In this document: positions 1,466-22,800 of the stretch, one piece after another
Layout of the letters: each line of letters starts with the position of its first letter
Numbering within the stretch: the stretch's first letter is position 1
Source of the DNA: a virus
Taxonomy: Duplodnaviria; Caudoviricetes
Reading direction: 5' to 3' (one strand)
Virus record (IMG/VR): IMGVR_UViG_3300006896_000005
Span: 1 to 28,194 of that record
Length of the DNA stretch: 28,194 nt
Program-made: the position numbers and the translations under genes
Notes under the pieces: model-generated
Told to the model about the DNA's origin: nothing
The model's input: only the letters and a program-made list of their open reading frames with translations
Database searches by the model: none

Positions 1466-2163
1466 TAAAACCCAGTGTCCCGCTTTGGGGTCGGCAATAA
1501 TGCCTTAATGACCCCCTGTACCGTTATCTCGGCAACATTGACTTCTATTGGGGCATACGCCTTATTCATTGCCTTCAACAGCACGGTTCCCCTGTCGGGC
1601 TGGGGAAAATACCCCTTTATGTGTGGTTTGTTATTATAAATAACAACAGCATTATCCCCATTTTCAGCACACATAGTCTGGGCATAAAGGAGGGCCTCCC
1701 CTTCTCTGTATCGGGGCTCCATTGAGTCTCCTCCCATCCTGATTATCCTCAGGATCTTTTCATCAATCCCTGTTATAAAATCTTTAATGTAATGCTTAGG
1801 CACTGACAAATAAGATTCTATTGCCAAAACCTTATAGGGCTTAATGCCGCCTTCTCCCGTGACGTCTATGACGCCCCTTCCCACAATCGGAAGGTTAATA
1901 GTATCTCCATCTGATTTCCTGCCTATTAACATAAATTCATCGCTGTACTCATTTAATAATCCAGAGTATTCTATTTCTCCGATCAAATAACTTGAAGAAG
2001 TATTTAATAGCATAGCCAACTTCAGCAGGTTATCCTCCGTTACTCCTCTCTCTGATTTTTCCCAGCGATAAATTGCGTTAATAGATACCCCAATTTTGTT
2101 AGCAAGGTCTTGCCTTGACCAACCCTTCTTTTTTCTTAATGCTTCGAGCCTGTCTCCTCTCAT
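1462..2163 (-). CDS. CI-like phage repressor (XRE HTH + S24 peptidase)
   Basis: N-terminal HTH (RLEALRKKKGWSRQDLANKIGVSINAIYRWE) and C-terminal GDSMEP S24 motif; ATG 2163 follows an SD-like AAGGGGTGA (track start 2172 also possible). Confidence 0.9.
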   Translation of the reverse strand: MRGDRLEALRKKKGWSRQDLANKIGVSINAIYRWEKSERGVTEDNLLKLAMLLNTSSSYLIGEIEYSGLLNEYSDEFMLIGRKSDGDTINLPIVGRGVIDVTGEGGIKPYKVLAIESYLSVPKHYIKDFITGIDEKILRIIRMGGDSMEPRYREGEALLYAQTMCAENGDNAVVIYNNKPHIKGYFPQPDRGTVLLKAMNKAYAPIEVNVAEITVQGVIKALLPTPKRDTGFY

Positions 2164-2440
2164 CTGTCTCACCCCTTTGTGTTATTAATACCCCCGAAAA
2201 TTCTCAAAGAGAACCACCGATCATAGCCTTATAACATATTACAGTAAATATTTCAAATAATAGGTCTGTAGACCCATTGTTGTATTGACTAGTCGGTGGT
2301 AGTATATCAACCGTAAGGTACATTTAAACACCTTACAGACAACAACAGCCACTAATATACGAACCTTGACAACCTAATAGAGGACTTCCATTTAAGGCAA
2401 CGGGTATACCATGGATATTATTTAAAAAGGAAGTGAGTCT

Positions 2441-2677
2441 ATGAGGAATAAGAAGAATTCCGATAAGCTGGAAAGCTGTATCGGAGTCTATCTTACCAAA
2501 GAACAGCGGGATTTTGTTGATAAGGTTTCGTCTTCCAGCGAACAGAGCAGGGCCAGTTATATAAGAGACCTTATTGAATATGAAAGAGAATCTGGGTCAA
2601 CTCCGATATTTTCCGGAGAGACCTTTGAGACACCTTGGGGGAGAGCTAAAAGATGGCTGACAGCACTGTTCTTTTAG
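2441..2677 (+). CDS. Ribbon-helix-helix (CopG/Arc-like) DNA-binding protein in the cro position
   Basis: IGVYLTKEQRDFVDKVS....SRASYIRDLIE fits the RHH pattern; first gene divergent from the repressor. Confidence 0.6.
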   Translation: MRNKKNSDKLESCIGVYLTKEQRDFVDKVSSSSEQSRASYIRDLIEYERESGSTPIFSGETFETPWGRAKRWLTALFF

Positions 2678-2952
2678 CAGTACCCAAAGAATATCTCGAC
2701 AGACTTGCCGGGCTTGCGGATGCCATCGAAGAAATGATAAGGGGGCAAGAAGGCAAAAAGCATTTAACTAATGCTGACCTTCGTAAAACGCTCACAATGT
2801 CGGACATTAAATCCATTTATGGCATCGGAAAAGATAAGTGGCGCAGTGGTGTTAAGGATGGAACATTCCCGGCGCCTATTGCCGGATTCGACAGGCCGAA
2901 GCGGTGGAATTCTATGGAGGTGGAGGACTCTCTGGGGAAGGAGGTGGCCTGA
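2653..2952 (+). CDS. AlpA/excisionase-like HTH protein
   Basis: LTMSDIKSIYGIG...VKDGTFPAPI....KRWNSMEVE matches the AlpA/Xis pattern. Confidence 0.7.
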   Translation: MADSTVLLAVPKEYLDRLAGLADAIEEMIRGQEGKKHLTNADLRKTLTMSDIKSIYGIGKDKWRSGVKDGTFPAPIAGFDRPKRWNSMEVEDSLGKEVA

Positions 2953-3509
2953 TGGACGAGATATTTAAACCGCATAGATATCGCCCCCATATGGCCCTAG
3001 ACCGAGTTAATGGCGTAGCACTTAAAAAAATGGCAGAGCGCAGGGGGCTCAGTATCGCAAAACTATCAGAACTTGCCTCTGTTCCACAAAGCACCATTGG
3101 TAACTATCTGTATGGACAACAGTTGCTGGCAGAAAGCAGAACAGTGAATAAACTGGCAGAGGCGCTGAAGTGTGACCCTATAGACATAATCCTTTGTCCG
3201 GGCGAAAGATCGCCCGTATACACGCTTAAGTCAAAGCCAGAAGCTACGGTTGACGATTTAATGCTCATGCCCAAGCCTGAGTTTGTAGTGGGAGATAAAT
3301 ACCACTTAAAGAGCAAGGGCGGCCAGTGCAAGGAGTTCGCTAACGGATATTTTAAGTTTATTGGAACGGCCCCTGCCGCCAACGGCAGGACACATTATAT
3401 GTTTCTTCACACTGCCGGGAAGTACCCCTTAACGCTGACAGAGATTGATTTTCTTTGTAAGGCGGTTGTGGCAGTAAACACAAAGGAACTGGCAGGTAAG
3501 GCCTCATGA
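2952..3509 (+). CDS. XRE-family HTH protein
   Basis: LKKMAERRGLSIAKLSELASVPQSTIGNYL...VNKLAEALKC; ATG 2952 overlaps the upstream TGA and follows SD AGGAGGTGG. Confidence 0.75.
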   Translation: MDEIFKPHRYRPHMALDRVNGVALKKMAERRGLSIAKLSELASVPQSTIGNYLYGQQLLAESRTVNKLAEALKCDPIDIILCPGERSPVYTLKSKPEATVDDLMLMPKPEFVVGDKYHLKSKGGQCKEFANGYFKFIGTAPAANGRTHYMFLHTAGKYPLTLTEIDFLCKAVVAVNTKELAGKAS

Positions 3510-4141
3510 TGGAGAAAAAAGTCAGTATGGCTGTAGTTATCGCTCTCTGTATAAACTCGTTCTCGGTAGGCTTTTGCCTCCGGGGGGTCATGTATCCACC
3601 AAGGATTACTACGCAAGAGATATGGCGAGAAGCGATTCCCATAGAGCGTATTGTTAAGGAACGCCCTATTCCAGAGATCAGGCACATACTGGAGGCCAAT
3701 CCAGCTATGAACCGTAACGAGGCCAGAGAACTTTATGAAACCATCGAGCGGGTAGTAGGGAGCTTTAAATCCGACCCCAACTATCAGGGCGGAGTGGCAC
3801 GCAAAGTAGATGCAAGGCTGATCCTCAGCCTGATTATCACAGAGAGTAATTGCAGAAAAAAGACGAGGGGAACGTCTGGCGAAATAGGGCTGACGCAGGT
3901 CATGCCATTTCACGCTAAAAATCTTCACAGGGCAGGGATACTTGACAAGCCCCAAAGCAAAGAGCTCTGGGATACAGAGAAAAACATTAGGGCAGGAGTT
4001 TTTATCCTGATGGCAAACGCGCTCAAAAGCAGTTCTATCAAAGAGGCACTGGCTAAATACAATGCCGGGCCCAAAAGGGTTAGGGTTGGAATGCCTTATG
4101 CCAAGAGAGTAATGGATCAATACGGCCAAATCAATGGCTAA
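3506..4141 (+). CDS. Lytic transglycosylase (SLT domain) with N-terminal hydrophobic anchor
   Basis: SLT motifs IITES (catalytic Glu), IGLTQVMP, NIRAG..L, ALAKYNAGP and YAKRV; hydrophobic residues ~6-25. Confidence 0.88.
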   Translation: MMEKKVSMAVVIALCINSFSVGFCLRGVMYPPRITTQEIWREAIPIERIVKERPIPEIRHILEANPAMNRNEARELYETIERVVGSFKSDPNYQGGVARKVDARLILSLIITESNCRKKTRGTSGEIGLTQVMPFHAKNLHRAGILDKPQSKELWDTEKNIRAGVFILMANALKSSSIKEALAKYNAGPKRVRVGMPYAKRVMDQYGQING

Positions 4142-4481
4142 AAACAAAGAAGGAGTGTTGCAGATGAAGAAGGTTGTAAGCGTGCAGTTTAACTACGAGG
4201 ACGGAGATTCCGTGAAGGTACTGGCCAAGACAGAAACAGAGGAGCAGGTATTCAGCGCTCTCAGACAGGCAGTTACGGGCAACAGGGAAAAGTGGGGCAA
4301 TATAAAAGCGGTTTCAATCGGAATCGAAAGGGAAAAACGCGACACAATCGCAATGGCGGGGCTCGGTATTGACATTATGAACGTGGTCGCGAAACAGTGC
4401 GAATCGGCCATAGAGAGCATGTCCCCAACTCTTAACGACAGAATTAAGAGGATTCAGTCGCTCATAGGAATATTAAATTAA
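4134..4481 (+). CDS. Hypothetical phage protein
   Basis: ORF continuing the operon; no recognised motif; start may be the internal ATG after an AAGGAG. Confidence 0.6.
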   Translation: MAKNKEGVLQMKKVVSVQFNYEDGDSVKVLAKTETEEQVFSALRQAVTGNREKWGNIKAVSIGIEREKRDTIAMAGLGIDIMNVVAKQCESAIESMSPTLNDRIKRIQSLIGILN

Positions 4482-4520
4482 CCCTTCCGCAATTAGCAGA
4501 AGGGCGCTGGGTTGGAAAAA

Positions 4521-4551
4521 GCGGGGAGCCGATTACTCCCCGCCTCATTTT
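4521..4551 (+). terminator. Intergenic hairpin, possible terminator
   Basis: GCGGGGAG (4521-4528) / CTCCCCGC (4536-4543), preceded by AAAAA and followed by CTCATTTT. Confidence 0.45.
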
Positions 4552-4569
4552 AGCAGAGGTGGTTGAAGA

Positions 4570-5490
4570 ATGATAGTAATTACAAGCACCGACAATATGC
4601 CAGATTCTGAATGGCTTGAACTGAGACGCAGGGGCATTGGGGGTTCTGATGCTTCAACCGCTATGGGGCTTAACCCTTGGAAGAGCCCCGTACAGCTCTA
4701 TCTAGAAAAAATAGGAGAGATAGAGCCAGAACAGCTCAACAGCGAGGCTGTTTACTGGGGCATAACCCTAGAGGCCGCCGTTGCAAACAGGTTTGCCGAG
4801 CTTAACCCTGATCTTGAGATACAGGAACCCAAACAGATGATTGCTCACGATGATTACCCTTGGATGGTAGCGAACTTAGACAGGGTAATCATAACACCAC
4901 GGGGCAACGGAGTTCTTGAAGTCAAGACGGCGAGCATGAGACAGGCTGACAAGTGGGAGGATGACAACATTCCTATTCACTATGTCATACAGGTACAGCA
5001 TTATTTGGCAGTTACTGGGTATGAGTTCGCCTACATTACATGTCTCATCGGAGGGCAGACCTTCGTTCAGAGATACATCGAGCGTGACGACGAGCTTATA
5101 GCTCAACTTATCCAGAAGGAATCAGAGTTCTGGCAGTGTACATTAAACAAGACCCCTCCCGCATGGGATGGCAGTGATGCAAGCTGGAAGATACTTCGCT
5201 CACTTTATCCAAAGGCAGAGCCCGGAAAGATAATAGAGCTTCCGACTGAGCTCATGGAGACAGTTAAAGAATACAAAGACCTGGAGCGGAGAAGTAAAGA
5301 GTATGAGTCTATAGCCAATGAAATAACACAGGCTAAGGATGCAAGAAAACAAAAAATCATAGAGGCTATGGCTGATGCGGAGGTAGGGGTAGTGGGGAAC
5401 TTTAAGATAAAGTACCCTCTGGTTGAAAGAAAGGAATATATGTCGCCAGCCACTACTTATAGACGCTTCTCACTCAAGGAAGTTGCATAA
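4570..5490 (+). CDS. YqaJ-like viral recombination exonuclease
   Basis: WLELRRRGIGGSDA, ANLDR, LEVKT and YVIQVQHYLAV motifs; directly upstream of recT. Confidence 0.93.
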   Translation: MIVITSTDNMPDSEWLELRRRGIGGSDASTAMGLNPWKSPVQLYLEKIGEIEPEQLNSEAVYWGITLEAAVANRFAELNPDLEIQEPKQMIAHDDYPWMVANLDRVIITPRGNGVLEVKTASMRQADKWEDDNIPIHYVIQVQHYLAVTGYEFAYITCLIGGQTFVQRYIERDDELIAQLIQKESEFWQCTLNKTPPAWDGSDASWKILRSLYPKAEPGKIIELPTELMETVKEYKDLERRSKEYESIANEITQAKDARKQKIIEAMADAEVGVVGNFKIKYPLVERKEYMSPATTYRRFSLKEVA

Positions 5491-5502
5491 GGGGGACTTG
5501 AC

Positions 5503-5842
5503 ATGACGGTTAATGATAAAGTTAAACAAGCTATGGCAACGACAACAGTAGGCGCCGCAAGAACTGCCAGTCCCATGGATTCCATGCTGGCACTATTGGC
5601 AAAGGATACCATGAAACAACAGTTCGCCATGGCACTTCCGGCGCACCTTAATAAAAACGCAGACAGATATATAAGATCATTCATGACACAGCTAAGACAA
5701 GTACCAAAACTCCTTGACTGTTCGCAATCCTCACTCCTAGGGGCAATGCTCACGGGTACAGCGCTAGGGCTAGATCCCACGCCATCACTTGGAGAGTTTT
5801 ATATCCTTCCTTATGGCAGAGAGGCGACGTTCCAGCTTGGGT
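5503..5842 (+). CDS. recT: RecT family recombinase, exon 1
   Basis: PKLLDCSQSSLLGA...LGLDP...GEFYILPYG..ATFQLG is the RecT N-terminal half; ends at the U of the group I 5' splice site. Confidence 0.92.
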
Positions 5843-6654
5843 AAACTTTTGCTCAAGTAAAACCGTGTGAACCCTATTACTCAGGGGTGTCTACAAAAGT
5901 AGGCTAACGGTGAAACCCTCCGATATTTATAGGGCAATACCGTGCTATTTACCGAACCTCCATTGACGGAGGTGGTGCCAATGATGGGAGTATATAGAAT
6001 CACAAATCGCATAACTGGAGATTTCTACATCGGGTCTAGTGTGGATATTAGGCACCGGATGGGACAGCATTTTAGCAAATATAAGGTGCGGCTCCACACG
6101 GAAAGATTCGATCAGGACTTGCAGAGATACGGCAAGGACGGATTCGACGTAGAGGTTATCGAGGAATGCGAGTTCGATGAACTCCGAGAGCGAGAAGAGT
6201 TTTATCTTTGCAAGTATCATCCACCATACAATCTAAGGTGGAAGGGGTACAAGCGCTCAGAAGAGACGAGGCGCAAGCTCAGCGAAAAACTGATAGGGCG
6301 CACCGTTCCAAGAGGGGTTGTCGAAAAGGCGCGGCTTGCAATACTTAAACGTCACGAAACAATTCCGCAGACCAATGCTGGGCATAAAAAGCGGGTCAGC
6401 GTGGACGGAGCGGAATTTGAAAGTGTAAAGGCTTGCGCAGAATACTTCGGTGTGAATCCTTCTACAGCTACACAAGCACTAAAGAAGGGACACAAATTAC
6501 TTGGGCATGAGGTTCGGTACGTAGTGTAGAGACTAGCCGTGATGAATGTAGCGGCGTAGAGCGGGGGACGAGTTGCCGCTCGAAGTGCATGGCAACCCTA
6601 CTGGGTTGAAGAGATAGTCCACCCCTCCGTGATGGTAAAACGGAGGATTAGGTG
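5843..6654 (+). ncRNA. Group I self-splicing intron (IA2-like), 812 nt, inside recT
   Basis: P1 CUUGGGU/GCUCAAG with U5842.G5851 wobble; P3 CCGUGU 5863-5868 / GCAUGG 6587-6592; P4 CGGUG/UACCG; P6a 5950-5960 / 6509-6519; P7 GACUA 6531-6535 / UAGUC 6615-6619 within GAAGAGAUAGUCC; P7.1 and P7.2; P8 CAACCC/GGGUUG; P9 CCUCCGU/ACGGAGG; terminal G6654; removal restores the reading frame. Confidence 0.93.
5981..6529 (+). CDS. Intron-encoded GIY-YIG homing endonuclease (NUMOD3-like repeat + C-terminal HTH)
   Basis: GVYRITNRITGDFYIGSS..I..R..QH GIY-YIG domain; SEETRRKLSE NUMOD3-like motif; FESVKACAEYFGV NUMOD1/IENR-like HTH; SD GGAGGT at 5968-5973; lies in the P6 loop. Confidence 0.92.
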   Translation: MMGVYRITNRITGDFYIGSSVDIRHRMGQHFSKYKVRLHTERFDQDLQRYGKDGFDVEVIEECEFDELREREEFYLCKYHPPYNLRWKGYKRSEETRRKLSEKLIGRTVPRGVVEKARLAILKRHETIPQTNAGHKKRVSVDGAEFESVKACAEYFGVNPSTATQALKKGHKLLGHEVRYVV

Positions 6655-7145
6655 ACAAAGGAATGTTGGCATTGGCTTACCGGGGCGGGGTAAAAAAGAT
6701 CTGGGCGCACGAGGTTTGCGAGAACGATGAGTTCGACCTTGCTTGGGGAGGGGAAGAGTTTCTTAAGCATAAACCCTGCCTTGATAACGAAAAGGGACGC
6801 GGGGAGGTTACTGGATACTACACTGCGGCCATCCTGCCTAATGGACAAACCACTTTCTTTTACATGACAAAAGCCGACGTAATAATACACGCCAAGAAGT
6901 TTAGTCCTTCTTGGAACAGGGGGCCTTGGCAGACAGACTTTAATGAAATGGCAAAGAAAACCTGCGCCAAACAGCTCTTTAAGTGGTTGCCAAAAAGCAC
7001 CGAGATGGCACATGCTATTGAAAGGGATGAATCTATCATCAAAGCAGAGCCTGCGCATGTTATCCAAGATCTCGAAGATGTCTTGGAGATGGAAGTAAGC
7101 TCTGTGGAAGAGATAGAATTGGCTGAAGCAGAACAGACGGCATAG
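6655..7145 (+). CDS. recT: RecT family recombinase, exon 2 (spliced product 276 aa)
   Basis: T5842+AC AAA GGA ATG gives Y-K-G-M, then LALAYRGG..V.ENDEF...GPWQTDFNEMAKKT..KQLFKWLPKS, the RecT C-terminal half. Confidence 0.92.
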
Positions 7146-7150
7146 TTGCT

Positions 7151-7990
7151 ATGGCTAAGTATAGGACTATTAAGGTAGATTACTGGGACGACCCTTATAC
7201 AGAGGAATTGCCCCCATGTGGGAAGTTGCTTTACATCTATCTAATAACTTCCTGTCCCAGTAATCTAGGAATACTTGAAATATCGTGCCGTAAAATTTGT
7301 TTTGAGACTGGGTTAAGCAAAGAAGAAACAACCGAGTTACTTTCTCTTCTAGAAAAGGATGGCAAAATAGTGAAGGACGGGGATTTTATACTCCTTACAA
7401 ATTTTGTCAAACACCAAACAAGCACGTCACCTCTGCTTATTAAGGGGCTGAAAAGCTCCTTGGCGGAGGTGGCGTCAACTAAAATAGCACTTGAACTTAA
7501 GACCAGATACCCCTTCTTAAGAAAAGAGGGGGAAGAGATACCCTATATATACCCTATACATACCCTATCTATACCATGTCTGGAATTGGAAGTTGAAAAG
7601 AAAGAAGAAGAGGAAGAAGGGGAAGGGGAAACCGAAGAAGATGCCCCCGTCTCAGCAAGTACGTTGATTGATCTGTGGAATAAATCAATGCCGCAGTATG
7701 GCTTTGCAAGGGCCATAAAAAGCACCCCAGACCGAAGGACTAAACTTAAAGCAAGGCAGAAATTTATGCCGGAGGCTAGGGATATCGACTTTTGGAAGAG
7801 GATTTACTATGTGATGGCTAATAGCCCCTTCTGTAGAGGAGAGCAAAGTCGTGGCGATCACAAAGACTGGAAGGCTGACTTTGATTTTCCCTTACTGTCT
7901 GACGACAGGCTGGCCAAAATAGTTGAAGGTAAGTATGACGGAGGTCGCGGAACAGAACAGTGGGTGCCAACAGATGGCAACGTTGCTTAA
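7151..7990 (+). CDS. Phage replication initiator/replisome organiser
   Basis: N-terminal YRTIKVDYWDDP...KLLYIYLIT wHTH-type region, acidic linker and C-terminal WKADFDF motif; upstream of the helicase; contains iterons. Confidence 0.75.
   Translation: MAKYRTIKVDYWDDPYTEELPPCGKLLYIYLITSCPSNLGILEISCRKICFETGLSKEETTELLSLLEKDGKIVKDGDFILLTNFVKHQTSTSPLLIKGLKSSLAEVASTKIALELKTRYPFLRKEGEEIPYIYPIHTLSIPCLELEVEKKEEEEEGEGETEEDAPVSASTLIDLWNKSMPQYGFARAIKSTPDRRTKLKARQKFMPEARDIDFWKRIYYVMANSPFCRGEQSRGDHKDWKADFDFPLLSDDRLAKIVEGKYDGGRGTEQWVPTDGNVA
7538..7575. repeat. Iteron-like tandem repeats (probable replication origin)
   Basis: ATACCCTAT at 7538, 7549 and 7560 plus ATACC at 7571 (11-bp period), followed by a purine-rich tract, inside the initiator gene. 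Confidence 0.65.
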
Positions 7991-9191
7991 TTCCAATGAG
8001 GTGCCAACGACCCCGTCCGAGGTTCGAGCCTCATACCTCAAATACGAAGATACAGGCGTTTCTGAAGAAGATATAAAACTGGTAATGCTGGATGCGCTAG
8101 ATAATCTCTGTTACTGGTGGGCAAGAAAGGGCGGCACTCCCTCTACAATAGCTGATGCAGTAATGGGGCAAGTTAAAGAGTGTGGCAGTCCTCCTTTCGC
8201 CTCCCCAGTACAGGTACGGCGTATTGCGGCTAAGGCATTCCGGCGATATATCGAGGACATGAAGCCCACCCTCGACCAAATAAGAGCAACGCAGTACAAC
8301 CAGCCCACAGACATAAGCGAAGAACTAAGTGCTATGGAATCATGGCTGACATACCGCACGGAACAGTTTCATTTTGGAATCTATGAGCTGGATCGGGCGA
8401 TTGGCGGGGGGATTATGAAGGGACAAACAATGTCCATCATAGGTAACCCCGGTTCGATGAAGACATCCTTGCTTTTGAGCGGGATAGAACAGTGGGTGAC
8501 GGAGAGCGATGAGCCTGTAGCCTTCTTCTCTGTGGATATGGACAAGGCCAGTATTTTTGAGAGGCTTATGTTAAGAGAGATGCGCTGTGGCCCGGACATA
8601 CTCAGGGAACATTATTACCGTAAATCCATAGAATATCTTGCGGCCAAAGAGACCCTGAGGAAAAGATACGCCGGGAAATTAAGTGTCTTTGAAAACAGGG
8701 TGGGGGATAAGTGGACCATCGACAAGATATGTGCTTACGCAGAAGTGAACACGCCGGGACTTATTTGCATTGACTTTCTTACTCAACTTAAAAAACCAAA
8801 ACAATCAGACTTTGATGTGGTTAATGAGGCGGTTCCAATACTCAAAGACCTAGCTCATTCTTATGGGTGCGCAGTTGTGGCTCTTAGTCAAATGAGCATG
8901 GCATCAAGGCAGGTGCAGGCATCAGGGGGCATAGGCGGAGCCGCCAAGGGTGGCCCAACGGTCGAAGAAAATGTCGATATTGAAATAGAGTTGTTCAGAG
9001 ATATTTCGGACAATCCGACAGACCCCGCGCCAAAGATAATAGCAACGATAAAGAAAACACGCAGAGGCATTGCTGGAGGTAGTTACCAGCTTGACTATTC
9101 GGGCCCCCTTATGCAGTTTAAGGGAACAGCGACAAGGGTTCATAGAGCGAAACCTATGAAGCCGCTATTTGAAACAGGCTCAATAATCTGA
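7923..9191 (+). CDS. DnaB-like replicative helicase
   Basis: Walker A GNPGSMKT, FFSVDM, ICIDFL (Walker B) and VVALSQ motifs; start may be ATG 7974. Confidence 0.85.
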   Translation: MKVSMTEVAEQNSGCQQMATLLNSNEVPTTPSEVRASYLKYEDTGVSEEDIKLVMLDALDNLCYWWARKGGTPSTIADAVMGQVKECGSPPFASPVQVRRIAAKAFRRYIEDMKPTLDQIRATQYNQPTDISEELSAMESWLTYRTEQFHFGIYELDRAIGGGIMKGQTMSIIGNPGSMKTSLLLSGIEQWVTESDEPVAFFSVDMDKASIFERLMLREMRCGPDILREHYYRKSIEYLAAKETLRKRYAGKLSVFENRVGDKWTIDKICAYAEVNTPGLICIDFLTQLKKPKQSDFDVVNEAVPILKDLAHSYGCAVVALSQMSMASRQVQASGGIGGAAKGGPTVEENVDIEIELFRDISDNPTDPAPKIIATIKKTRRGIAGGSYQLDYSGPLMQFKGTATRVHRAKPMKPLFETGSII

Positions 9192-12177: not shown

Positions 12178-12780
12178 TTAAACAAGTTGTCCTCTTTCTT
12201 TGTATGCCTTTTCTCTACGCGGATTCATCTCCTCCTGTACCGGCTTCAATGATGATGCTGGAATTCTCCATATTCCATCATAAGGAGACTTGAAGGCTCC
12301 GGGAACCCTGCCTTGTTTGCAGAGCAGGGCTATCCTTTCTTTTGACCGGGGAGGGTTTATTGCGTCAGCAAATTCCTTGACGGTCAAATACTCGCGCGTA
12401 AACACTTTATCCTCTTGCATCTCATCGCTGAATTGTTCCAGTGTGAGGTACAAAATTTCTTGAGAGGATAAAGATGAAACCTGCCCACTTAAAAGCTTAT
12501 CTCTTCTTATTGTGTATGCCAAGGCTTCTGCCGTAGGTGGGTGCGCTGGCGTGTATCCGTCTTCTTTAATGATGTCTTTTAGTAAATTTATTTCATCAGG
12601 AAGAAACTTCTGCTCAATTAATTGCCGCGCACCTTTCATTTGGCGAACAGTCCAAGTCAGGAGCCATGTGGCGAACACCTCCTGATCGTTTTCCCCGCTC
12701 ATTTCTTTAATAAATGCCTTTCCGGTGACAGGGAGATTGCTTATTATCCTATTTTCTGGTTCTCGTCTCTCATAAACCAT
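12178..12780 (-). CDS. Protein with C-terminal excisionase-like (HTH_17/MerR-type) domain
   Basis: YLTVKEFADAI....ERIALLCKQGRVPGAFK....WRIP. Confidence 0.7.
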   Translation of the reverse strand: MVYERREPENRIISNLPVTGKAFIKEMSGENDQEVFATWLLTWTVRQMKGARQLIEQKFLPDEINLLKDIIKEDGYTPAHPPTAEALAYTIRRDKLLSGQVSSLSSQEILYLTLEQFSDEMQEDKVFTREYLTVKEFADAINPPRSKERIALLCKQGRVPGAFKSPYDGIWRIPASSLKPVQEEMNPRREKAYKERGQLV

Positions 12781-12804
12781 AACACCTACCCCCTTCTAGG
12801 TAAT

Positions 12805-12833
12805 AGTATATAACCACTATCGGAGCATGTCTA
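12805..12833 (-). promoter_or_regulatory. Sigma70-type promoter for the 12178-12780 gene
   Basis: Minus strand TAGACA-17 nt-TATACT; a second candidate TTGACT-16-TAGCAT at 12869-12896. Confidence 0.6.
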
Positions 12834-12906
12834 CCTCACCCCGTTGAGTGCCCATATACATAGGCAGTATGCTATGCTTATGGTAACAAGAGTCAAAAAC
12901 CTGCCC

Positions 12907-13227
12907 TTAGTCAATATCATACCCATGCCAACATATGATCTTTTTGTCTGTCTCTAGCGCATATTTAACTTCAGCCCTACAGCCAGCACTCTCCTCCCAG
13001 TCACCGAACACCCACAGCTCATCGCAGTTAGATAGCAACTCAATACAGTGGTCGATAACATCTTCTTCCGGCGGAAGATATGCAAAATTATGAAGAGGGC
13101 TAACCGGGAGAATGTCCGGATGCCCTCTTATAATGTCTGTGCATATCATTCCAACCTTTTTCATGTTACCTTGCGGATCGTTTCTAAAAGGATGTGCTAT
13201 ATATACTTTCTTCTTTTTCTTCTGCAC
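12907..13227 (-). CDS. DUF4406-like / nucleoside 2-deoxyribosyltransferase-fold protein
   Basis: VYIAHPF, PVSP, CIELLSNCDELWVFGDWEESAGCRAEVKYA. Confidence 0.8.
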   Translation of the reverse strand: MQKKKKKVYIAHPFRNDPQGNMKKVGMICTDIIRGHPDILPVSPLHNFAYLPPEEDVIDHCIELLSNCDELWVFGDWEESAGCRAEVKYALETDKKIICWHGYDID

Positions 13228-13241
13228 ATTAACTCCTCCTT

Positions 13242-13505
13242 CTAATCCATCATACGCAAGGTCTCTTTTAGCGCAGTGGCGATTCTGCCTAGTGCGCCCT
13301 CCACGTCCTCCTCCTCCAAAAACACTACCTTGTGTATACCTTTAACGCGGGCTATAGTCTTCGTGATATATATCTCCTTATATCGCCAGTTCTCCGACAC
13401 CATCCGTTCCGCATATGCCTTTGCTTCTTCGTATGCGTCAAAGCCATAGCTGACACTGCCGTCTTGCTCCATGTCTCGTACTACTGCATATGTTTGTTTG
13501 CTCAT
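13242..13505 (-). CDS. Hypothetical phage protein
   Basis: ORF within the tightly packed leftward block. Confidence 0.6.
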   Translation of the reverse strand: MSKQTYAVVRDMEQDGSVSYGFDAYEEAKAYAERMVSENWRYKEIYITKTIARVKGIHKVVFLEEEDVEGALGRIATALKETLRMMD

Positions 13506-13513
13506 ACTGTTTT

Positions 13514-13741
13514 CTATCTCCCCTTCGTAGATAGGCTATATCTTCTCTTATTCCCAAAGTATCGCTCAATAAGCGGGACTAAGTACGTGCCAGATAAGAT
13601 TCCTACCGCCATTCCTTCAATAAACGCAATGCCAATCAAATTAGCAAGAGAGGCATAACCCAACAGCCACGGGGTTATTCCTGCTATCATTATTGCGTTA
13701 ACAATTCCTGTAGTAGTTATTACCGCCCAATACAATTTCAT
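13514..13741 (-). CDS. Small membrane protein (two hydrophobic segments)
   Basis: MKLYWAVITTTGIVNAIMIAGITPWLLG...LIGIAFIEGMAVGILSGTYLV; SD GGAGGTGG and ATGA overlap. Confidence 0.6.
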   Translation of the reverse strand: MKLYWAVITTTGIVNAIMIAGITPWLLGYASLANLIGIAFIEGMAVGILSGTYLVPLIERYFGNKRRYSLSTKGR

Positions 13742-13923
13742 TCCTCCACCTCCTCGTTCCAACCATCCTTACAATCACCGTTACTTATGTCGCATTCATA
13801 TCCAACACATCTGTTTAAATTAAACCCGTCTACGTCTGGGCAAAGGTTTTTAACAATAAATTCAGACAACTCCTCATCGCTCCACCCTCTGACTATTTCG
13901 ACCGCCTTGTCAATCTTCTTCAT
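13738..13923 (-). CDS. Small Cys-containing hypothetical protein (MKKIDKA...)
   Basis: SD GAGGTGA; four Cys. Confidence 0.6.
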   Translation of the reverse strand: MKKIDKAVEIVRGWSDEELSEFIVKNLCPDVDGFNLNRCVGYECDISNGDCKDGWNEEVEE

Positions 13924-13927
13924 GACA

Positions 13928-14269
13928 TCACCTCAACATATTCAGCATATAGTCCAACGCCCACGCTTCTGGGTCGTGTCTCCAAAAAAGATAATCAGGG
14001 AGGAAAAGAACGGACAATATCAAGCAGATAATCATTATCCCAAATCCCCAAATAACAAAACCGCACCAACTATCATTTTCAAAACCACTCACTAAATACA
14101 CCCCTACGACAACTAAACATATCCCCATACAGAAACCTATAGCCAACATAACGCATGGCGTAAAAGTCTTATACCCCAACCTCGGCAACACTTCCATGAG
14201 CTTACCCGCTGGCACCGCTAGTTTACTTGCAAGATTATCTATTACTGAGTTGATTGCTTCTGGATTCAT
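13928..14269 (-). CDS. Membrane protein (two TM helices)
   Basis: Two long hydrophobic stretches; SD GGAGGTG. Confidence 0.7.
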   Translation of the reverse strand: MNPEAINSVIDNLASKLAVPAGKLMEVLPRLGYKTFTPCVMLAIGFCMGICLVVVGVYLVSGFENDSWCGFVIWGFGIMIICLILSVLFLPDYLFWRHDPEAWALDYMLNMLR

Positions 14270-14289
14270 TTACACGCACCTCCGTTAAT

Positions 14290-14382
14290 TTATTTGTCTG
14301 AGCGATGTGCCCACCCAGAGAGATATAATCCGACAACAATGCCATACACGAATAAAATAATATCCCTAGAAATAGGCGTCAT
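14290..14382 (-). CDS. 30-aa single-TM peptide (not in ORF track)
   Basis: Hand translation MTPISRDIILFVYGIVVGLYLSGWAHRSDK; SD-like GGGGGAG. Confidence 0.4.
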   Translation of the reverse strand: MTPISRDIILFVYGIVVGLYLSGWAHRSDK

Positions 14383-14413
14383 TCTGTCTCCCCCTGTGCC
14401 TTGTCAATCTTCT

Positions 14414-14722
14414 TCATGAGGAACATCTTTCTCCCCAATAACAACACGTATCTTCCTCGTCAACTATAAATTCCTTCGCTTTTTTAAGTCGACAAATTAA
14501 TACGTCTCCAACAACCGGGTCGTTAAGGTGTCTAGAATGACAACAACTACGGCATAATTGGTTAAAGGTGCGTTTGATCCATTCCTCAAACGAAATATCA
14601 CCCTCAGGCCATTCACCCTTCGCTATTTGTCCGGCCTTTAAAACTTCGTATATCGCCTTGGCGTAAGGCTCATCCGTATTGATGATAAAATATTTGTTAC
14701 CCGGCTTCATTATCTTTTTCAT
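14414..14722 (-). CDS. Hypothetical protein with C-terminal Cys cluster
   Basis: KYFIINTDEPYA..IYEVLK N-terminus; CRSCCH...C...CCYW C-terminus. Confidence 0.6.
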   Translation of the reverse strand: MKKIMKPGNKYFIINTDEPYAKAIYEVLKAGQIAKGEWPEGDISFEEWIKRTFNQLCRSCCHSRHLNDPVVGDVLICRLKKAKEFIVDEEDTCCYWGERCSS

Positions 14723-14724
14723 TC

Positions 14725-15090
14725 CTATTCCTCCCCTCGTGCCTTACGGAGGGCCTTGTTAATGTCTTTTGGTGTGCCAAACTCATCCCATTCGGTAATA
14801 AAATCAAACTGAGGATGCCCTGCTACACCAATAGAATCATTTATCAAAGATTGTATTTCCTCCAGCACCTCAATTATCTCCTTGTTGATTGCCTTGAGTT
14901 CGGCGTTCTCCTTTCGCAGGTCGGGTAACTGCCATGCGTCGGCGATCAGCTCAATATTCTTATTGTTAAAATATCCGTTCCCAAAAAGATCAATTATCTC
15001 GCCGTTCGGACCTAGAATTTTAATAAATCCACTTCCATCGCGGGACCGCACTACCTTCCACGGTCCCGGCGTGTTCTTAGGCTCGGCCAT
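14725..15090 (-). CDS. Hypothetical phage protein (TPGPW N-terminal motif)
   Basis: KNTPGPWKV...LIADA...ALRKARGE pattern common in phage early genes; SD GAGGAGGT. Confidence 0.7.
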   Translation of the reverse strand: MAEPKNTPGPWKVVRSRDGSGFIKILGPNGEIIDLFGNGYFNNKNIELIADAWQLPDLRKENAELKAINKEIIEVLEEIQSLINDSIGVAGHPQFDFITEWDEFGTPKDINKALRKARGEE

Positions 15091-15114
15091 ACTAATACCT
15101 CCTCTTATTCTTTC

Positions 15115-15276
15115 TCAAGTAGCTGTCCATCCATAGCCAGGGTTATATCTACGCTTGTTCCCCGTTTTGTCTAATTCCGCTCGCAACCTAGCCACTTCAC
15201 GTTCTAACCTCTCAACCTCTTGCTCCAACTGCTGTTCTTTTAGTGCCGGAGGAGGTCCCCAATTACCGTTTAACAT
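15115..15276 (-). CDS. Small coiled-coil protein
   Basis: LEQEVERLEREVARLRAEL; ATG 15276 just after the YopX stop. Confidence 0.5.
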   Translation of the reverse strand: MLNGNWGPPPALKEQQLEQEVERLEREVARLRAELDKTGNKRRYNPGYGWTAT

Positions 15277-15280
15277 CTCC

Positions 15281-15703
15281 TCATTCCTCCTCCTTCTCAG
15301 AACATTCCTTTTTCCCATTGTTCTGCGTGTCGTGGATGTTGCCGATGACCTGTAATTGTGACTTTGATTCAAAGTGCAACGGATATCCCATGGTGTAATC
15401 TGATTCCAGTACGCTTGTAAAACAAGCCATGTTGTCGCTGTAAATAATCACATGCCTTTTGCCTAGGAAGTCAAGATAAATATCTCCTTCAAATATTTTC
15501 TTTTTTTCTCCTGCTAACTCATTTAAGCCTGTAAACCGACCTACCGTGGCGGGGTCGACGATATACTCATCCTCAAGATCAAATATCTGTGCCACGGGAT
15601 AATCTACATGTGAGCCATAGACCCAGTCACCAATCTTCATCCTATCTTTAAGATATTTAGGAACTTCCGTAACTTTCCCCCTAAACAGTATCTCCCTGCT
15701 CAT
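15281..15703 (-). CDS. YopX family protein
   Basis: MSREILFRGK, WVYG, VDPATVGRFTGL, IFEGDI, LQVIGNIHD. Confidence 0.9.
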   Translation of the reverse strand: MSREILFRGKVTEVPKYLKDRMKIGDWVYGSHVDYPVAQIFDLEDEYIVDPATVGRFTGLNELAGEKKKIFEGDIYLDFLGKRHVIIYSDNMACFTSVLESDYTMGYPLHFESKSQLQVIGNIHDTQNNGKKECSEKEEE

Positions 15704-15984
15704 TCCGCTCCCCCCTTCGCTTCCTCCCACTTACTTACGGCTTCCTCTAACGCCGATTCATCAATAATCCCGTCAAGTACGTCTGTTATGCGCTTGGATA
15801 AGGTGTTACCTGCTTGCTTTAGGACTAGTTTCTTTTTACTTGTCTTAAAATGAGCTTCAATACTCTCGCAACGATCATCATATATGGATTGATAACGTGT
15901 CTTAAGCTCGGCGTTCTCTATCTCCATCTCCTTCACCCTTTGTGTTAGTTCGCACTCTCGGCAGAGGTCAGCGGGGTTGGTCAT
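15700..15984 (-). CDS. Hypothetical coiled-coil protein
   Basis: MTNPADLCRECEL...; SD GGAGGG; ATG 15984 preferred over the track start. Confidence 0.55.
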   Translation of the reverse strand: MTNPADLCRECELTQRVKEMEIENAELKTRYQSIYDDRCESIEAHFKTSKKKLVLKQAGNTLSKRITDVLDGIIDESALEEAVSKWEEAKGGAE

Positions 15985-16345
15985 TAGAGACCCTCCTGTT
16001 CCATGCGGTGATGGCTTCAGCTGTTGTATAGAATACTTCTCCCTGCGCTGAACAGTTATAACAAAACACAAATGTCTCAGTCGTGAAAAAACCACTATCA
16101 TTTACTCCAGCCTTATCCCCACAAAATGGACACCGATCTATTAAACTCTCTATTTCTTCTTCGCTCAAATCATAAATAGAAAACAGCTTTACAATTAAAT
16201 CTGTCGGGACAGGTACTTCGCCTGTTTCAATCTTTGACAGATACGGGCACGTGTAACCCAGTGCATCAGCCATATCTTTCAGCAAGATGCCCCTGTTGAT
16301 GCGTATCTGCCTTAGAGCTTTACCAAAATATGTTTGCTCCATCAC
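15968..16345 (-). CDS. XRE HTH fused to Lar-like restriction-alleviation zinc ribbon
   Basis: FGKALRQIRINRGILLKDMADALGYTCPYLSKIETG (HTH) followed by CPFCG...CYNC......EAITAWNRR (Lar family signature). Confidence 0.8.
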   Translation of the reverse strand: MMEQTYFGKALRQIRINRGILLKDMADALGYTCPYLSKIETGEVPVPTDLIVKLFSIYDLSEEEIESLIDRCPFCGDKAGVNDSGFFTTETFVFCYNCSAQGEVFYTTAEAITAWNRRVSNDQPR

Positions 16346-16569
16346 TCAACCTCCTCCGGGAACTTAATCGGCATCCATGCGATGATGTTCTCTTGTGATA
16401 TTTCCTCATCACGATGGTCGGCTGTGATAAATTTGCCATGTTCCAGATATACATGCCCCAATGTTGCGGTCTCATAATCATACTCAGGGGTTATAGCTAA
16501 ATACACCACCACGCAATCACATTCCTCAGTCGGCAGCTCCGTGCCCTTATGCCACTTGTAAAGTTCCAT
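16342..16569 (-). CDS. DUF551-like phage protein
   Basis: KWH...ELP...CVV and IIAWMPI.FPE termini. Confidence 0.6.
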   Translation of the reverse strand: MELYKWHKGTELPTEECDCVVVYLAITPEYDYETATLGHVYLEHGKFITADHRDEEISQENIIAWMPIKFPEEVE

Positions 16570-16862
16570 TAGGCTGAGGCCTCCTTTGTCTTCTCTTTCA
16601 TGTCATCAATGTTCCTTGTCCAATTCCGGTTGAAATCTTCTATCGCCTTTTCTGGGCTGTTCCCGAATCCACACACGCCATCTTGAATATTATCTCCGTA
16701 TAACGCGCACCACTTGTCACCGTCAAGATAGATCTTGGGTTTGTAATTTATGCTTGGCATATAAGCAAGGTACCGCAAATCTTCATAATGAAAAGTGGCA
16801 AGCCTAATGTCAACATTCAAACGCTCGTTCCAATAATCCGCTTCTGTTGTGATTCCGCTCAT
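16569..16862 (-). CDS. Hypothetical phage protein
   Basis: DGDKWCALYGDNIQDGVCGFGNSPEKAIEDF; ATG 16862 after SD GGAGGGTG. Confidence 0.7.
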   Translation of the reverse strand: MSGITTEADYWNERLNVDIRLATFHYEDLRYLAYMPSINYKPKIYLDGDKWCALYGDNIQDGVCGFGNSPEKAIEDFNRNWTRNIDDMKEKTKEASA

Positions 16863-17055
16863 TCCGCACCCTCCCTTAATATCTTCGGTCAAATCCAACA
16901 CTAGACGGCAACCATAACCATCTTCTCTGAAGTTCTTCGTCGCACTCTCGGCACAAGTTTGTTCCATCTGTGTATGCGTGATACTCGTCACACTCCATGT
17001 CAATGGTTTTGCCACACTTACTGCATATTAAAAAATCGCTCATTCCGCACCCTCC
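16856..17055. repeat. 19-bp exact direct repeat at gene junctions (SD + start codon)
   Basis: CGCTCATTCCGCACCCTCC at 16856-16874 and 17037-17055; related GCTCATTCCGCTCCCCC at 15698-15714. Confidence 0.85.
16876..17043 (-). CDS. 55-aa single zinc-ribbon protein (not in ORF track)
   Basis: Hand translation MSDFLICSKCGKTIDMECDEYHAYTDGTNLCRECDEELQRRWLWLPSSVGFDRRY; SD GGAGGGTG and ATGA overlap. Confidence 0.7.
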   Translation of the reverse strand: MSDFLICSKCGKTIDMECDEYHAYTDGTNLCRECDEELQRRWLWLPSSVGFDRRY

Positions 17056-17285
17056 TTTTGTCTCTTATTGGGGCTTTTTAAATAAAACTCACCTGCACAA
17101 CGGGCATGAAAAAAACACACTGCACGTAAATCAACTGGCCCTATGTGAATTAGCTCAACACATATGCCTTCTTCGTCATTAAATGGCTTGCCACACACCC
17201 CACAAAGCACCGGGATAAAAGTTTTTTCTTTTGTTTTATATACGTCCACTATCCATCGCCGCCCCTTCCCTGCCCATCTGTTCAT
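17040..17285 (-). CDS. Small zinc-finger-like hypothetical protein
   Basis: CGVCGKPF...FFHARC. Confidence 0.55.
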   Translation of the reverse strand: MNRWAGKGRRWIVDVYKTKEKTFIPVLCGVCGKPFNDEEGICVELIHIGPVDLRAVCFFHARCAGEFYLKSPNKRQKEGAE

Positions 17286-17775
17286 CTAAATCCCTTCCCT
17301 GATAAACAGTCTCTCCCAGCAAGTACGCCTGACTTACTCCAAGCGCTTCTGCCAACCTCCTCAGCCTATTGCCTACAGGGTTGTATTCTCCGGCCTCCCA
17401 GTAAGAAATTGTGCCCTGTTTTACATTGACCTTTTTTGCGAGTTCTGTCTGAGACATACCTATGTCTATTCTTTTTGTTTGTATTCTTACTCCAATAGAA
17501 CTGCAAGAACGGGAGCAGTCTAAAACTGGAGCAGAGCCTTGTTGCTGGCTCCGCCCCTCCAACTTCTCTATGTGAATTGATTCGGCTTGCGGCAGTTTTT
17601 CCATAAAATCAACCACCTCGTCAACTGTGCCTCCGGGCACAATATAGTCAACCGTGACCCTCCACACGCTAGACTCCCGCTTTTCCAGTACGCTGTTTAT
17701 TATTTCATCCATCAAGCTGGTCTTTAAGAGCTTGGCTGGTTTATTTTTACTGGACAAAGCACACCCTCCTGTCAT
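17236..17775 (-). CDS. Protein with C-terminal XRE HTH domain
   Basis: IGVRIQTKRIDIGMSQTELAKKVNVKQGTISYWEAG..NP....LRRLAEALGVSQAYLL. Confidence 0.8.
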   Translation of the reverse strand: MTGGCALSSKNKPAKLLKTSLMDEIINSVLEKRESSVWRVTVDYIVPGGTVDEVVDFMEKLPQAESIHIEKLEGRSQQQGSAPVLDCSRSCSSIGVRIQTKRIDIGMSQTELAKKVNVKQGTISYWEAGEYNPVGNRLRRLAEALGVSQAYLLGETVYQGRDLDEQMGREGAAMDSGRI

Positions 17776-17799
17776 AAAACATCACCTAATGGTAATAGT

Positions 17800-19332
17800 T
17801 TAGCACGAACAGGTCTCTTCGTTAATCCCCCTTTCTTCCATATATGCCTTTAATTCCGGGCTGTAGCATTCCATTTTTTCAAGGAATTCAGAGGGGGCCA
17901 TGCTCCATATTTGATATCTTGTGTGCGCTTCAGCACACGTGATAAGGAAGTCGAAGTAATGGAGGCACGCTATGATAGATGAGACCTTCATCGTTCCCCT
18001 ACATGCCCTGAACTCGACTGTTCCAACCTTTGTCAGGTTAATGGCAACATACCTGTCGTTCCATCTGGACGTTTTCTTTGCAATAGAGACGGTTCTGGCA
18101 AAATCCCCTTCGGATTCTATGGCCATAGGTCTCTTCCCCCACTGCGAGAGCCTATTCTCCTTACGCCTCGATACTCTAAACGTGGTGTTCCAGAATTTAT
18201 TGACCAGCATAAGCAGTTTGGCAATGGTTTCACAGGACATGGAGTTCTTGGATACATGGAAGTGCAGGCCACAGGTACTCGTATCGTGGCTTCTGTATTT
18301 GTTTTTAATAAGGAATTTCATGGCCTCCTCTAGTTTACCGAAGAAACCTGCCTGTTTCATATAAGCCAGTGTCATTGGCTGGCTGATAAGCTCAAATCCG
18401 CAACGCAGAGACCCGTCACTCTTTGCCATCCAATAGTTCCACGCCTCATTTTCGCCATGATTAAGTATTCTGCCAAGTACGTCTTCTACAATATTATCGC
18501 GCCTTTCTCTTCCCCATGGGTCACAGTCATCCGGTATATCTACCTCTATCTCCATTCCGTAGTAACGGGCAACAACAGGCTCGCTTTCTTCTACACGATA
18601 GAAGCACCGTGGGGTATTGTCGTAAGCGCCGTGCATTAAGGTCGGAGGTTCGCGGTGCTTCAGCGCGGCTGTTGAAAGTATGTATTCCTCTGACATTTCA
18701 TGCTCATCGTCTTCACCAGATCCGCTCCTAGCATCACAGTGATCGCCGTTTTCCTCCCAGCAGGATTCGCACATATACTCTTCGGATTCTTCATTCCAGA
18801 ACATTTCGTTTCTCCGAAATGCTCGCCCACATTCAGAACATGTCTCGAAGCTATGGTCATAGCAAGATTCACAGACACACCCTTCTTCTGTTTGATAAGC
18901 ACAGTCATCGTGTTCTATGCGCCCGCATTCTTCACACCTAAAATAGTTTTGGTTAAAACAATCTTCGCACATATCGCCCCCTCCGTAATCTCCGGCATAC
19001 GAAGAGCCGGAATAAAAGTTGCGGCAGTCAGAACACTGGAAATAATCACCGTCAGAATAACAGTCGCCGCATATGTGTATATCGAGATCTTCTATGTATA
19101 TCGAATCATCTGTCAGGTGATATTCATGGCATTTATCGCAAAGACTATAGTTAGTTAGACAGGAAGAGCACACAAAATCTCCGTCGGCAATTTCGGTTGC
19201 TTCTGACGGTTTTATTTCTTCACAGCAATTTGCGCATATAACCATCTCTTCTTCCTCTGTGGCATCTTCTATTGTTTCTATCTCAGGTATTTCAATCACG
19301 GGCGCTGATACTTCAATAACGATAGATTCCAT
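17800..19332 (-). CDS. Amidoligase (COOH-NH2 ligase, Amidoligase_2-like) with N-terminal zinc-ribbon repeats
   Basis: YGMEIEV, KSDGSL..GFELISQP, TCGLHFHVS, RYVAINL and TVEFR motifs; 10 CxxC motifs in an acidic N-terminal region. Confidence 0.85.
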   Translation of the reverse strand: MESIVIEVSAPVIEIPEIETIEDATEEEEMVICANCCEEIKPSEATEIADGDFVCSSCLTNYSLCDKCHEYHLTDDSIYIEDLDIHICGDCYSDGDYFQCSDCRNFYSGSSYAGDYGGGDMCEDCFNQNYFRCEECGRIEHDDCAYQTEEGCVCESCYDHSFETCSECGRAFRRNEMFWNEESEEYMCESCWEENGDHCDARSGSGEDDEHEMSEEYILSTAALKHREPPTLMHGAYDNTPRCFYRVEESEPVVARYYGMEIEVDIPDDCDPWGRERRDNIVEDVLGRILNHGENEAWNYWMAKSDGSLRCGFELISQPMTLAYMKQAGFFGKLEEAMKFLIKNKYRSHDTSTCGLHFHVSKNSMSCETIAKLLMLVNKFWNTTFRVSRRKENRLSQWGKRPMAIESEGDFARTVSIAKKTSRWNDRYVAINLTKVGTVEFRACRGTMKVSSIIACLHYFDFLITCAEAHTRYQIWSMAPSEFLEKMECYSPELKAYMEERGINEETCSC

Positions 19333-19344
19333 AATATCTCCTCC

Positions 19345-19689
19345 TTATTCTCTGCTGATTCTGCCTAGTTTATTTGCACCCAATACCCTATGGGTCTGTT
19401 CGTCTCTTATTATCCCAAGCGGAAAGAACAGATCATCTCTGCCCCTTGCCGCCTGAGCTACCATTTGTGATACAATTAATGCAGTACCCTCCTCTGGGTC
19501 TGGCAGGTCAACTACCTCTCCGTGGTTGACCCAAGCAACGGGGATGCCCATTACAGGCTCCCCATCTTCTTCGTTAATAACGATTCTTGCACATAGATCT
19601 GAGGGGTCTATCGTAAAGGCACCTCCTCCAACAAGTATCCGCACTTGATGTGGCGTAAGGTTTTTAATTCGCTTTGTTTTTTCATCCAT
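19345..19689 (-). CDS. Small NLTPH-motif protein
   Basis: IKNLTPHQV...PS...ARI...LPDPEEGTALIVSQMVA...R.DL..P..IRD; I recognise this as a recurrent phage family but the function is uncertain. Confidence 0.7.
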   Translation of the reverse strand: MDEKTKRIKNLTPHQVRILVGGGAFTIDPSDLCARIVINEEDGEPVMGIPVAWVNHGEVVDLPDPEEGTALIVSQMVAQAARGRDDLFFPLGIIRDEQTHRVLGANKLGRISRE

Positions 19690-19692
19690 GCA

Positions 19693-20859: not shown

Positions 20860-20907
20860 ATACACATCATCCTTTCAATTTTTATTAAACTGGACTGATA
20901 CAAGCTG

Positions 20908-22779: not shown

Positions 22780-22800
22780 ATTACTCACCTCCATATGGGT

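Follow-up and report, generated by a model that had tools for sequence, protein, structure and literature searches.

The recT gene of the virus record IMGVR_UViG_3300006896_000005 is very probably interrupted by a group I intron of 812 nt, which likely removes itself from the transcript by splicing to give a RecT protein of 276 aa, and the GIY-YIG gene within the intron likely encodes a homing endonuclease. Mobile introns with GIY-YIG genes are a well-known type of element. For the one described here, the boundaries, the fold, the active-site residues of the nuclease, the existence of near-identical recT genes with and without the insert and the scattered distribution are all established by sequence comparison.

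The stretch of DNA analysed, hereafter the window, is the whole 28,194-nt virus record. According to profile searches, its first 12 kb on the + strand form a temperate-phage early module, with genes for an integrase, a repressor, a YqaJ/RecE-like exonuclease, RecT, a replication initiator, DnaB, SSB and RusA. The exonuclease gene (4570-5490, + strand; PF09588, E 3e-36; phrog_434), which codes for the partner of RecT, lies upstream of recT and adjacent to it. No packaging or structural genes were found in the 28,194-nt record. The early module also contains an SLT lytic transglycosylase gene with an N-terminal hydrophobic stretch (3506-4141), flanked by regulators on one side and the exonuclease on the other. 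Facing the module, the - strand harbours an extended run of small genes, most of them without annotation (12178-27176), including two genes of the amidoligase-2 family (17800-19332 and 20908-22794), a Lar-like gene and a YopX-family gene. Two long, nearly perfect hairpins (27099-27180 and 27236-27272) are found at the non-coding right end of the record.

An earlier, sequence-only reading had taken the apparent recT stop codon, TAA at 5842-5844, for an exon/intron junction, and our analysis reproduced all of its coordinates. Exon 1 (5503-5842, + strand) comprises 113 codons plus the U of a Tyr codon, matches positions 2-61 of the PF03837 model and scores above the TIGR00616 cut-off; exon 2 (6655-7145, + strand) continues at model positions 63-188. 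Joining U5842 to A6655 gives 831 nt encoding 276 aa, with no internal stop and with the sequence FQLG-Y-KGMLALAY across the joint. The LGYKG motif is kept only by this joint and by the equivalent 5843|6656, and only 5842|6655 combines a U.G pair in P1 with a terminal G (G6654). The comparison with homologues proposed by that reading also bore it out, as the spliced RecT is 84-85% identical to 10 intact proteins and aligns with them through the junction without a gap. Membership of the RecT/Red-beta family is indicated by the PF03837 and TIGR00616 matches over the joined exons, the contiguous G-Y-K-G and the upstream exonuclease partner. Relative to an empty-site allele (L105) whose protein is 85% identical, exon 1 has 26 silent and 1 replacement codons, and exon 2 has 57 silent and 18 replacement codons.

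A search with the pattern of the 3' junction returned 47 viral and 40 genome loci. The recT gene is split at the same site in 20 of the viral loci, one of which is the window's own record, and in 13 of the genome loci, where two of the introns are cut by contig ends; the remaining 27 viral and 27 genome hits do not lie in recT and were dropped as chance matches or other elements. The 31 complete introns represent 23 distinct types with a common boundary, of which 17 keep a GIY-YIG ORF and 6 have no nuclease, one of the latter with a remnant. By their titles, the genome records belong to Bacillota, Treponema, Bacteroidota and Fusobacterium, host labels that are possibly wrong since most of these records are metagenome bins; one locus (L052) is classed as a provirus. 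Two further recT introns (L230 and L251) were found in an independent sample described below. Three loci (L010, L081 and L083, two of them titled Treponema) form a divergent subtype at the same recT site, with P2 present and a much longer P3.2. In another locus (L021), two RAGATH-18 RNAs (191-251 and 571-630) exceed the Rfam cut-off and precede the recT intron by about 2 kb.

Insertion site, boundaries and fold

The intron splits the Tyr codon of the RecT G-Y-K-G motif. This Tyr aligns with Y110 in the identical motif of the Listeria RecT (LiRecT, PDB 7UB2), in which Y110 and K111 contact the inner DNA strand, according to the sections of PMC9772228 covered here. Introns of this kind usually sit in the most conserved stretch of their host gene (PMC2504315, sections covered), and the choice of site is likely explained by the fact that the codon of a DNA-contacting Tyr belongs to the most conserved RecT motif. 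The bases coding for F-x-x-G-Y are nearly invariant in 80 empty alleles, the best-scoring 80 of 379, these alleles having been found by patterns over the same motif. At exon position -2, the third base of the Gly codon, all 23 intron types have G or C, whereas 23 of those 80 empty alleles have A. This bias fits a constraint exerted by P1 on the exon.

The intron occupies positions 5843-6654 of the + strand, with an in-frame TAA across its 5' junction and G6654 at its end. In P1 (5836-5857), exon bases 5836-5842 pair with the guide 5851-5857 over 7 bp, and the final U of the 5' exon faces G5851 at the splice site, as had been proposed. Helices like P1 of such length occur by chance at 87 of the 7,880 T positions in the window, so that P1 alone proves little and the weight is carried by the comparison with relatives. 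Among these, the exon strand and the intron strand of P1 both show compensatory changes, which tie the guide to the recT exon. By established group I chemistry, guanosine would attack at U5842.G5851, and exon ligation at G6654 would restore RecT.

All of the helices listed in the sequence-only reading, P3, P4, P5, P6/P6a, P7, P8 and P9, can be paired, and so can P3.1, P3.2, P7.1, P7.2 and P9.0. The 5' strand of P3 (5863-5868) pairs with 6587-6592 and shows two-sided change in 4 of its 6 pairs. P3.1 (5872-5886) and P3.2 (5890-5903) are the two extra hairpins that the same reading had noticed after P3. They are followed by P4 and P5 (5907-5943) and by the 5' strands of P6 and of the 11-bp P6a (5944-5960), which pair with 6509-6525. 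The catalytic core (6529-6620) consists of P7 (6529-6535 with 6615-6620), in which guanosine is presumably bound by the pair G6531-C6619, P7.1 (6536-6555), a GUA linker (6556-6558), P7.2 (6559-6581), the 3' strand of P3 (6587-6592) and P8 (6593-6608). The last part of the intron (6621-6654) contains P9.0, a single P9 stem (6624-6646) and then 8 nt up to and including the terminal G; there is no P2, and P10 can form only as a short pairing with a bulge. All these elements are on the + strand. The terminal G is invariant in 23 aligned 3' halves, although it was demanded by the search pattern. A predicted pairing between the loops of P3.1 and P7.2 would brace the fold.

In an alignment of 16 whole introns, 97.5% of the cells are paired in the group I fold, a value matched by none of 500 shuffles. 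Controls with slid partners gave 36-43%, the structure having an advantage over them in that it was drawn on the window. Two-sided change affects 35 of the 65 pairs, and P7 is invariant in all 16 introns. RNAalifold, unaided, recovered P1, P3.1, P3.2, P4, P5 and P7-P9.

As for the covariance-model check suggested beforehand, it failed with Rfam RF00028, which gave no hit in the window (13.4 bits on 6531-6646, against a cut-off of 50) and no match on five relatives (L010, L021, L007, L052 and L027). When run on six loci, the model assigned 85 bits to an Aeromonas phage terminase intron, 27.4 bits to the nrdD intron of JSE and 31.8 bits (E 1.2e-4) to a nuclease-free recT intron (L085), and it missed a T4-type nrdD intron (L095) together with two recT introns. 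We ascribe the miss on the window to the low sensitivity of a model that overlooks a T4-type nrdD intron as well. Our own covariance model, restricted to the 3' half and built on 20 relatives with the window left out, gave the window 138.6 bits (6522-6655), four held-out recT introns 97-136 bits and other phage introns 20-75 bits. The same model picked up another group I intron 3' half behind a helix-turn-helix ORF (L006, 3864-3978; 49 bits). In three Paenibacillus genomes (L057, L066 and L093), a conserved stretch at about 2430-2553 with a group I-like S element scored 11-14 bits, and no open RecT frame follows it.

Endonuclease gene and distribution of the intron

The loop of P6a houses the GIY-YIG ORF (5981-6529, + strand; 182 aa). 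The 3' strand of P6a and P6 comes from the 3' end of this ORF, whose stop codon finishes on the first base of P7. The sequence-only reading called it a homing endonuclease, which agrees with family profiles above their cut-offs (PF01541, E 1e-10; TIGR01453, 91 bits against a cut-off of 56) and with the presence of the catalytic Arg, Glu and Asn; cleavage is predicted on that basis. The motif residues are GVY (3-5), YIG (16-18), R26, E72 and N84, and Y5, Y16, G18, R26, H30, E72 and N84 are invariant in 7 aligned relatives. The catalytic domain aligns with structures of I-TevI, R26 and E72 falling at the two positions where chains 1ln0 and 1mk0 differ, which we take to be the R27A and E75A mutants of I-TevI. 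NUMOD3 is below its cut-off in the window's ORF (E 0.02), and relatives reach the cut-off for NUMOD3 or for an I-HmuI-like NUMOD. In three relatives (L054, L040 and L027), the nuclease ORF extends 33-87 nt past the start of P7, compared with 1 nt in the window, and in L081 (1715-2548) it reaches the 3' end of the intron.

A hairpin at 5956-5973 (+ strand), rival to the distal 5 bp of P6a, is predicted to hide the ribosome-binding site of the nuclease gene (5968-5973), whose unpaired probability in the nascent 5' part comes to 0.0-0.1 in fold predictions. We considered a clean switch in which formation of P6a frees this site and rejected it, as no more than 1.5 kcal/mol separates the two folds in the window and P6a itself hides the site in several relatives. 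We therefore limit the claim to a predicted damping of endonuclease translation by the RNA structure that covers the ribosome-binding site. A promoter scan of positions 2000-8000 gave 7 sites, with 7.9 expected, and none just upstream of the nuclease gene.

In public metagenome contigs, we found a copy of 5861-6550 with 12 differences, which fall at 12 ORF positions, 8 of them silent. The same metagenome runs contain another intron-bearing allele, which is more abundant and whose exons have diverged. Of nine runs, none recorded as RNA, eight were compared with the window; they consist of assembled contigs, probably of DNA, so that the lack of a listed joint between 5842 and 6655 has no bearing on splicing, and exon stretches left uncovered by them carry no weight here. 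Among 15 viewed members of one 90%-identity protein cluster of 82, 10 are intact RecT proteins of 280 aa, 2 end at FQLG and 2 start inside the P9 of the intron. Annotation pipelines give such recT genes as fragments.

The mobility claimed by the sequence-only reading is borne out insofar as near-identical recT alleles exist with and without the intron and its presence on the RecT tree is patchy. When 23 intron-bearing RecT sequences are placed on one tree with 64 empty ones (115 rows before near-duplicate empty ones were removed), at least 15 gains or losses are required. The 80 empty alleles compared at the insertion site are the best-scoring 80 of 379, so that the count of 80 empty out of 80 cannot give the frequency of the intron. 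The core of the window's intron is 81-82% identical to cores residing in RecT genes whose products are only 32-38% identical. Overall, the identities of intron cores and RecT proteins correlate with a Spearman coefficient of 0.51, which means that an ancient insertion lost several times over would account for much of the pattern as well; the resolution of the intron-core tree is poor. In the one comparison made of the sequences flanking the site, with L105, identity is 18/20 and 17/20 next to it and 10-20/20 further out, with no clear co-conversion tract. On these comparisons, the distribution fits homing with loss, no single transfer being proven. In such homing, the endonuclease would cut both strands near an empty recT site, and repair from an intron-bearing copy would carry the intron into it.

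Alternatively, splicing may be intact while the endonuclease of this particular copy is inactive, the intron being only inherited with the phage. The nuclease has been lost in 6 of the 23 types, the ribosome-binding site is predicted to be hidden, and intron and host identities correlate, all of which would suit such a course. We nevertheless consider it unlikely in view of the intact ORF with all checked active-site residues, of the metagenome near-copy in which 8 of the 12 ORF differences are silent, and of the close relatives that offer empty sites to cut.

It is tempting to speculate that the intron resides in recT because YqaJ and RecT repair the break that its nuclease makes, with splicing and homing coupled. 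The yqaJ and recT genes are adjacent, exonuclease-annealing pairs of the Red/RecET type resect and anneal broken ends, and introns are present at this site in RecT clades that lie very far apart. However, the upstream exons of this intron family mostly belong to nrdD, DNA polymerase and tape-measure genes, recT accounting for 3 of 40 sampled; furthermore, a conserved target sequence suffices to explain the site, and host recombination could repair the break. Such a coupling thus seems rather improbable, slightly more so than an inactive nuclease: help from RecT in the homing of its own intron, as put forward in the sequence-only reading, is possible but unneeded. As the nuclease is aimed at the most conserved RecT motif, a dependence of homing on the interrupted recombinase becomes testable.

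That the locus is simply a broken recT followed by a free-standing nuclease, without splicing, could be argued from the in-frame TAA at 5842-5844, from a potential ATG at 6663 and from the Rfam score below threshold, but it is hardly credible given that every core helix covaries, including P1 across the junction, that a single boundary is shared by 23 types, nuclease-free ones included, and that change is mostly silent in both exons. A self-splicing intron with a homing endonuclease gene remains our reading of the locus. With it, recT joins the phage genes that host introns, and the family is large enough for studies of intron gain, nuclease loss and guide adaptation. Its nuclease-free copies of 249-315 nt (L021, L061, L085, L010 and L083) are compact substrates for structural work.

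Subgroup and closest relatives

The description of the intron as 'IA2-like' holds in part. The G-U-A linker between P7.1 and P7.2, an IA2 feature in the covered part of PMC3428280, is present, but the extended domain 9 with P9.0, P9.1 and P9.2, given as another IA2 feature in the corresponding part of PMC4227781, is absent. IA2 itself is described as heterogeneous (PMC11878797, in part). A single P9 and a short 3' end serve as a criterion for calling an intron IA3 in the relevant section of PMC2504315, and the recT intron has both. By these published criteria, the subgroup is IA, and not cleanly IA2.

The architecture resembles that of the td intron of phage T4 with I-TevI. In the sections of PMC3073962 covered, the td ORF sits in the P6 loop with its 3' end in core helices, and a hairpin encloses the ribosome-binding site. 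The recT intron likewise has a GIY-YIG ORF in the P6 loop whose 3' end supplies bases of P6a, P6 and P7, a ribosome-binding-site hairpin and an in-frame stop at the 5' junction. It differs from td, to which we compared it by description, in its recT host, its shorter nuclease (182 aa), the presence of P3.1 and P3.2 and the absence of P2. T4-type nrdD (sunY) introns (L094 and L095) share 29-30 nt around P7/P7.1 at 93-100% identity and score 64-67 bits with our model; in contrast to the recT intron, they have no P3.1/P3.2 between P3 and P4, their P9 region is longer and the ORF of the T4-type nrdD copy comes after P9. In sunY, the P7.2 loop pairs with the P9.2 loop.

Among the records tested, the closest relative outside recT is an intron-like insert that Geobacillus virus E3 (NC_029073) carries in its tape-measure gene (75 bits with our model). 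It has nearly the same P3.1, P3.2 and P7.2, with a compensated pair between the loops of P3.1 and P7.2, and differs by its host gene, the presence of P2 and the lack of a nuclease. This insert (L101, 1470-1770) is an unannotated nuclease-free group I intron, the tape-measure gene being annotated as N- and C-terminal halves; our literature search returned no publication on it. The DNA-polymerase intron of phiAGATE (Bastillevirinae) has the P3.1/P3.2 insertion and P4/P5 in common with ours (74% identity over 108 nt), but it encodes an HNH nuclease, carries another P7 extension and has a P3.1 of the 5-bp-plus-tetraloop type. Bastillevirinae DNA-polymerase introns were surveyed in PMC11878797, as far as its covered text goes. 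A match to the same region also comes from the terminase intron of Staphylococcus phage PH15, where the annotation gives a joined gene enclosing a nuclease. P3.1 and P3.2 are not peculiar to recT and are found in introns of the phiAGATE DNA polymerase, an Enterococcus phage nrdE, a Carnobacterium phage terminase and the E3 tape-measure gene.

Another recombinase gene with group I introns is recA, whose product, an ATPase that exchanges strands, has no relationship to annealing proteins of the RecT/Red-beta type. The recA introns occur in the Bacillus cereus group and in phages 0305phi8-36 and 812, and, as in the recT family, the nuclease is kept in some copies and lost in others (PMC2504315; compared by description). 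Group I introns in phage recA genes and prophages had already been published (Table 3 and text of that paper). With the two halves of the window's intron and with the L021 intron as blastn queries, no recT-annotated intron was found in GenBank phages among the matches listed. The literature listings and the text passages searched, those of PMC3984707, PMC11878797, PMC7886860, PMC12350094 and PMC11835236 among them, contain no description of recT as a group I intron host. Within the literature searched, recT therefore appears to be undescribed as an intron host gene.

The P3.1 and P7.2 loops

In the window, loop bases 5879-5882 of P3.1 are complementary to loop bases 6570-6573 of P7.2, and the two strands are predicted to pair. 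This pairing is limited to 4 bp, and an A.C mismatch occupies a position at which most relatives form a pair. In a fixed register, at least four contiguous Watson-Crick pairs can form in 22 of the 23 recT types, across five loop sequences, the exception being L027. A permutation test on seven loop sequences, one representative each and Geobacillus virus E3 included, reached the observed score in 4 of 5,040 arrangements. As the register had been chosen by eye on recT sequences, we turned to an independent sample.

This sample consists of 121 loci retrieved with a P3.1/P3.2 pattern from 4 of the 64 parts of IMG/VR, an estimated total of about 2,100 such stretches being expected. The 3' core was within reach in 49 of 123 matches, 48 of which were distinct and 47 could be parsed. 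Two exclusive classes of P3.1/P7.2 loops emerged in these introns (L186-L306). In the first, 15 of the 47 have a P7.2 loop of the GUGAAA type, and 13 of these 15 have a P3.1 made of five pairs and a tetraloop, a form present in none of the 32 others (Fisher p 7e-10, uncorrected for kinship); one GUGAAA call without the tetraloop (L194) is possibly spurious. In the other class, 28 distinct loops from outside recT include 18 with at least four complementary bases (6.4 in permutations) and 12 with at least five (1.5 in permutations), and the observed sum of complementarity was not attained in any of 5,000 permutations. Ten of the 28 loops have only 2-3 complementary bases, which indicates that the pairing is not universal.

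The simplest reading of these covariations is a predicted physical contact between the P3.1 and P7.2 loops, through base pairing or through a fixed non-canonical module. The literature listings and the passages searched in PMC2504315, PMC4227781, PMC3428280, PMC2248736 and PMC1995217 contain no description of the loop pairing. Within the literature searched, the predicted contact appears to be undescribed. In two mutually exclusive forms, it represents a testable ribozyme architecture.

More tentatively, and at somewhat less than even chances, we propose that phage group I introns include a structural subgroup, widespread but so far unrecognised and for the most part overlooked by the Rfam model, of which the recT intron would be a member. 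In it, P3.1/P3.2 would dock onto the P7.2 loop in two interchangeable ways, via a Watson-Crick kissing helix, as in recT, or via a fixed tetraloop facing a GUGAAA-type loop, and recT would be an undescribed host gene with introns across four bacterial phyla. If so, the contact would be an undescribed long-range brace of the ribozyme core and its two forms a natural module swap. The hosts in the sample comprise genes for nrdD, DNA polymerase, tape-measure, major and minor head proteins, RNA polymerase beta and an 'endonuclease' family (phrog_4645). One locus of the sample (L187) harbours two introns of the P3.1/P3.2 type, separated by about 500 nt and belonging to different classes; an nrdD exon precedes the first.
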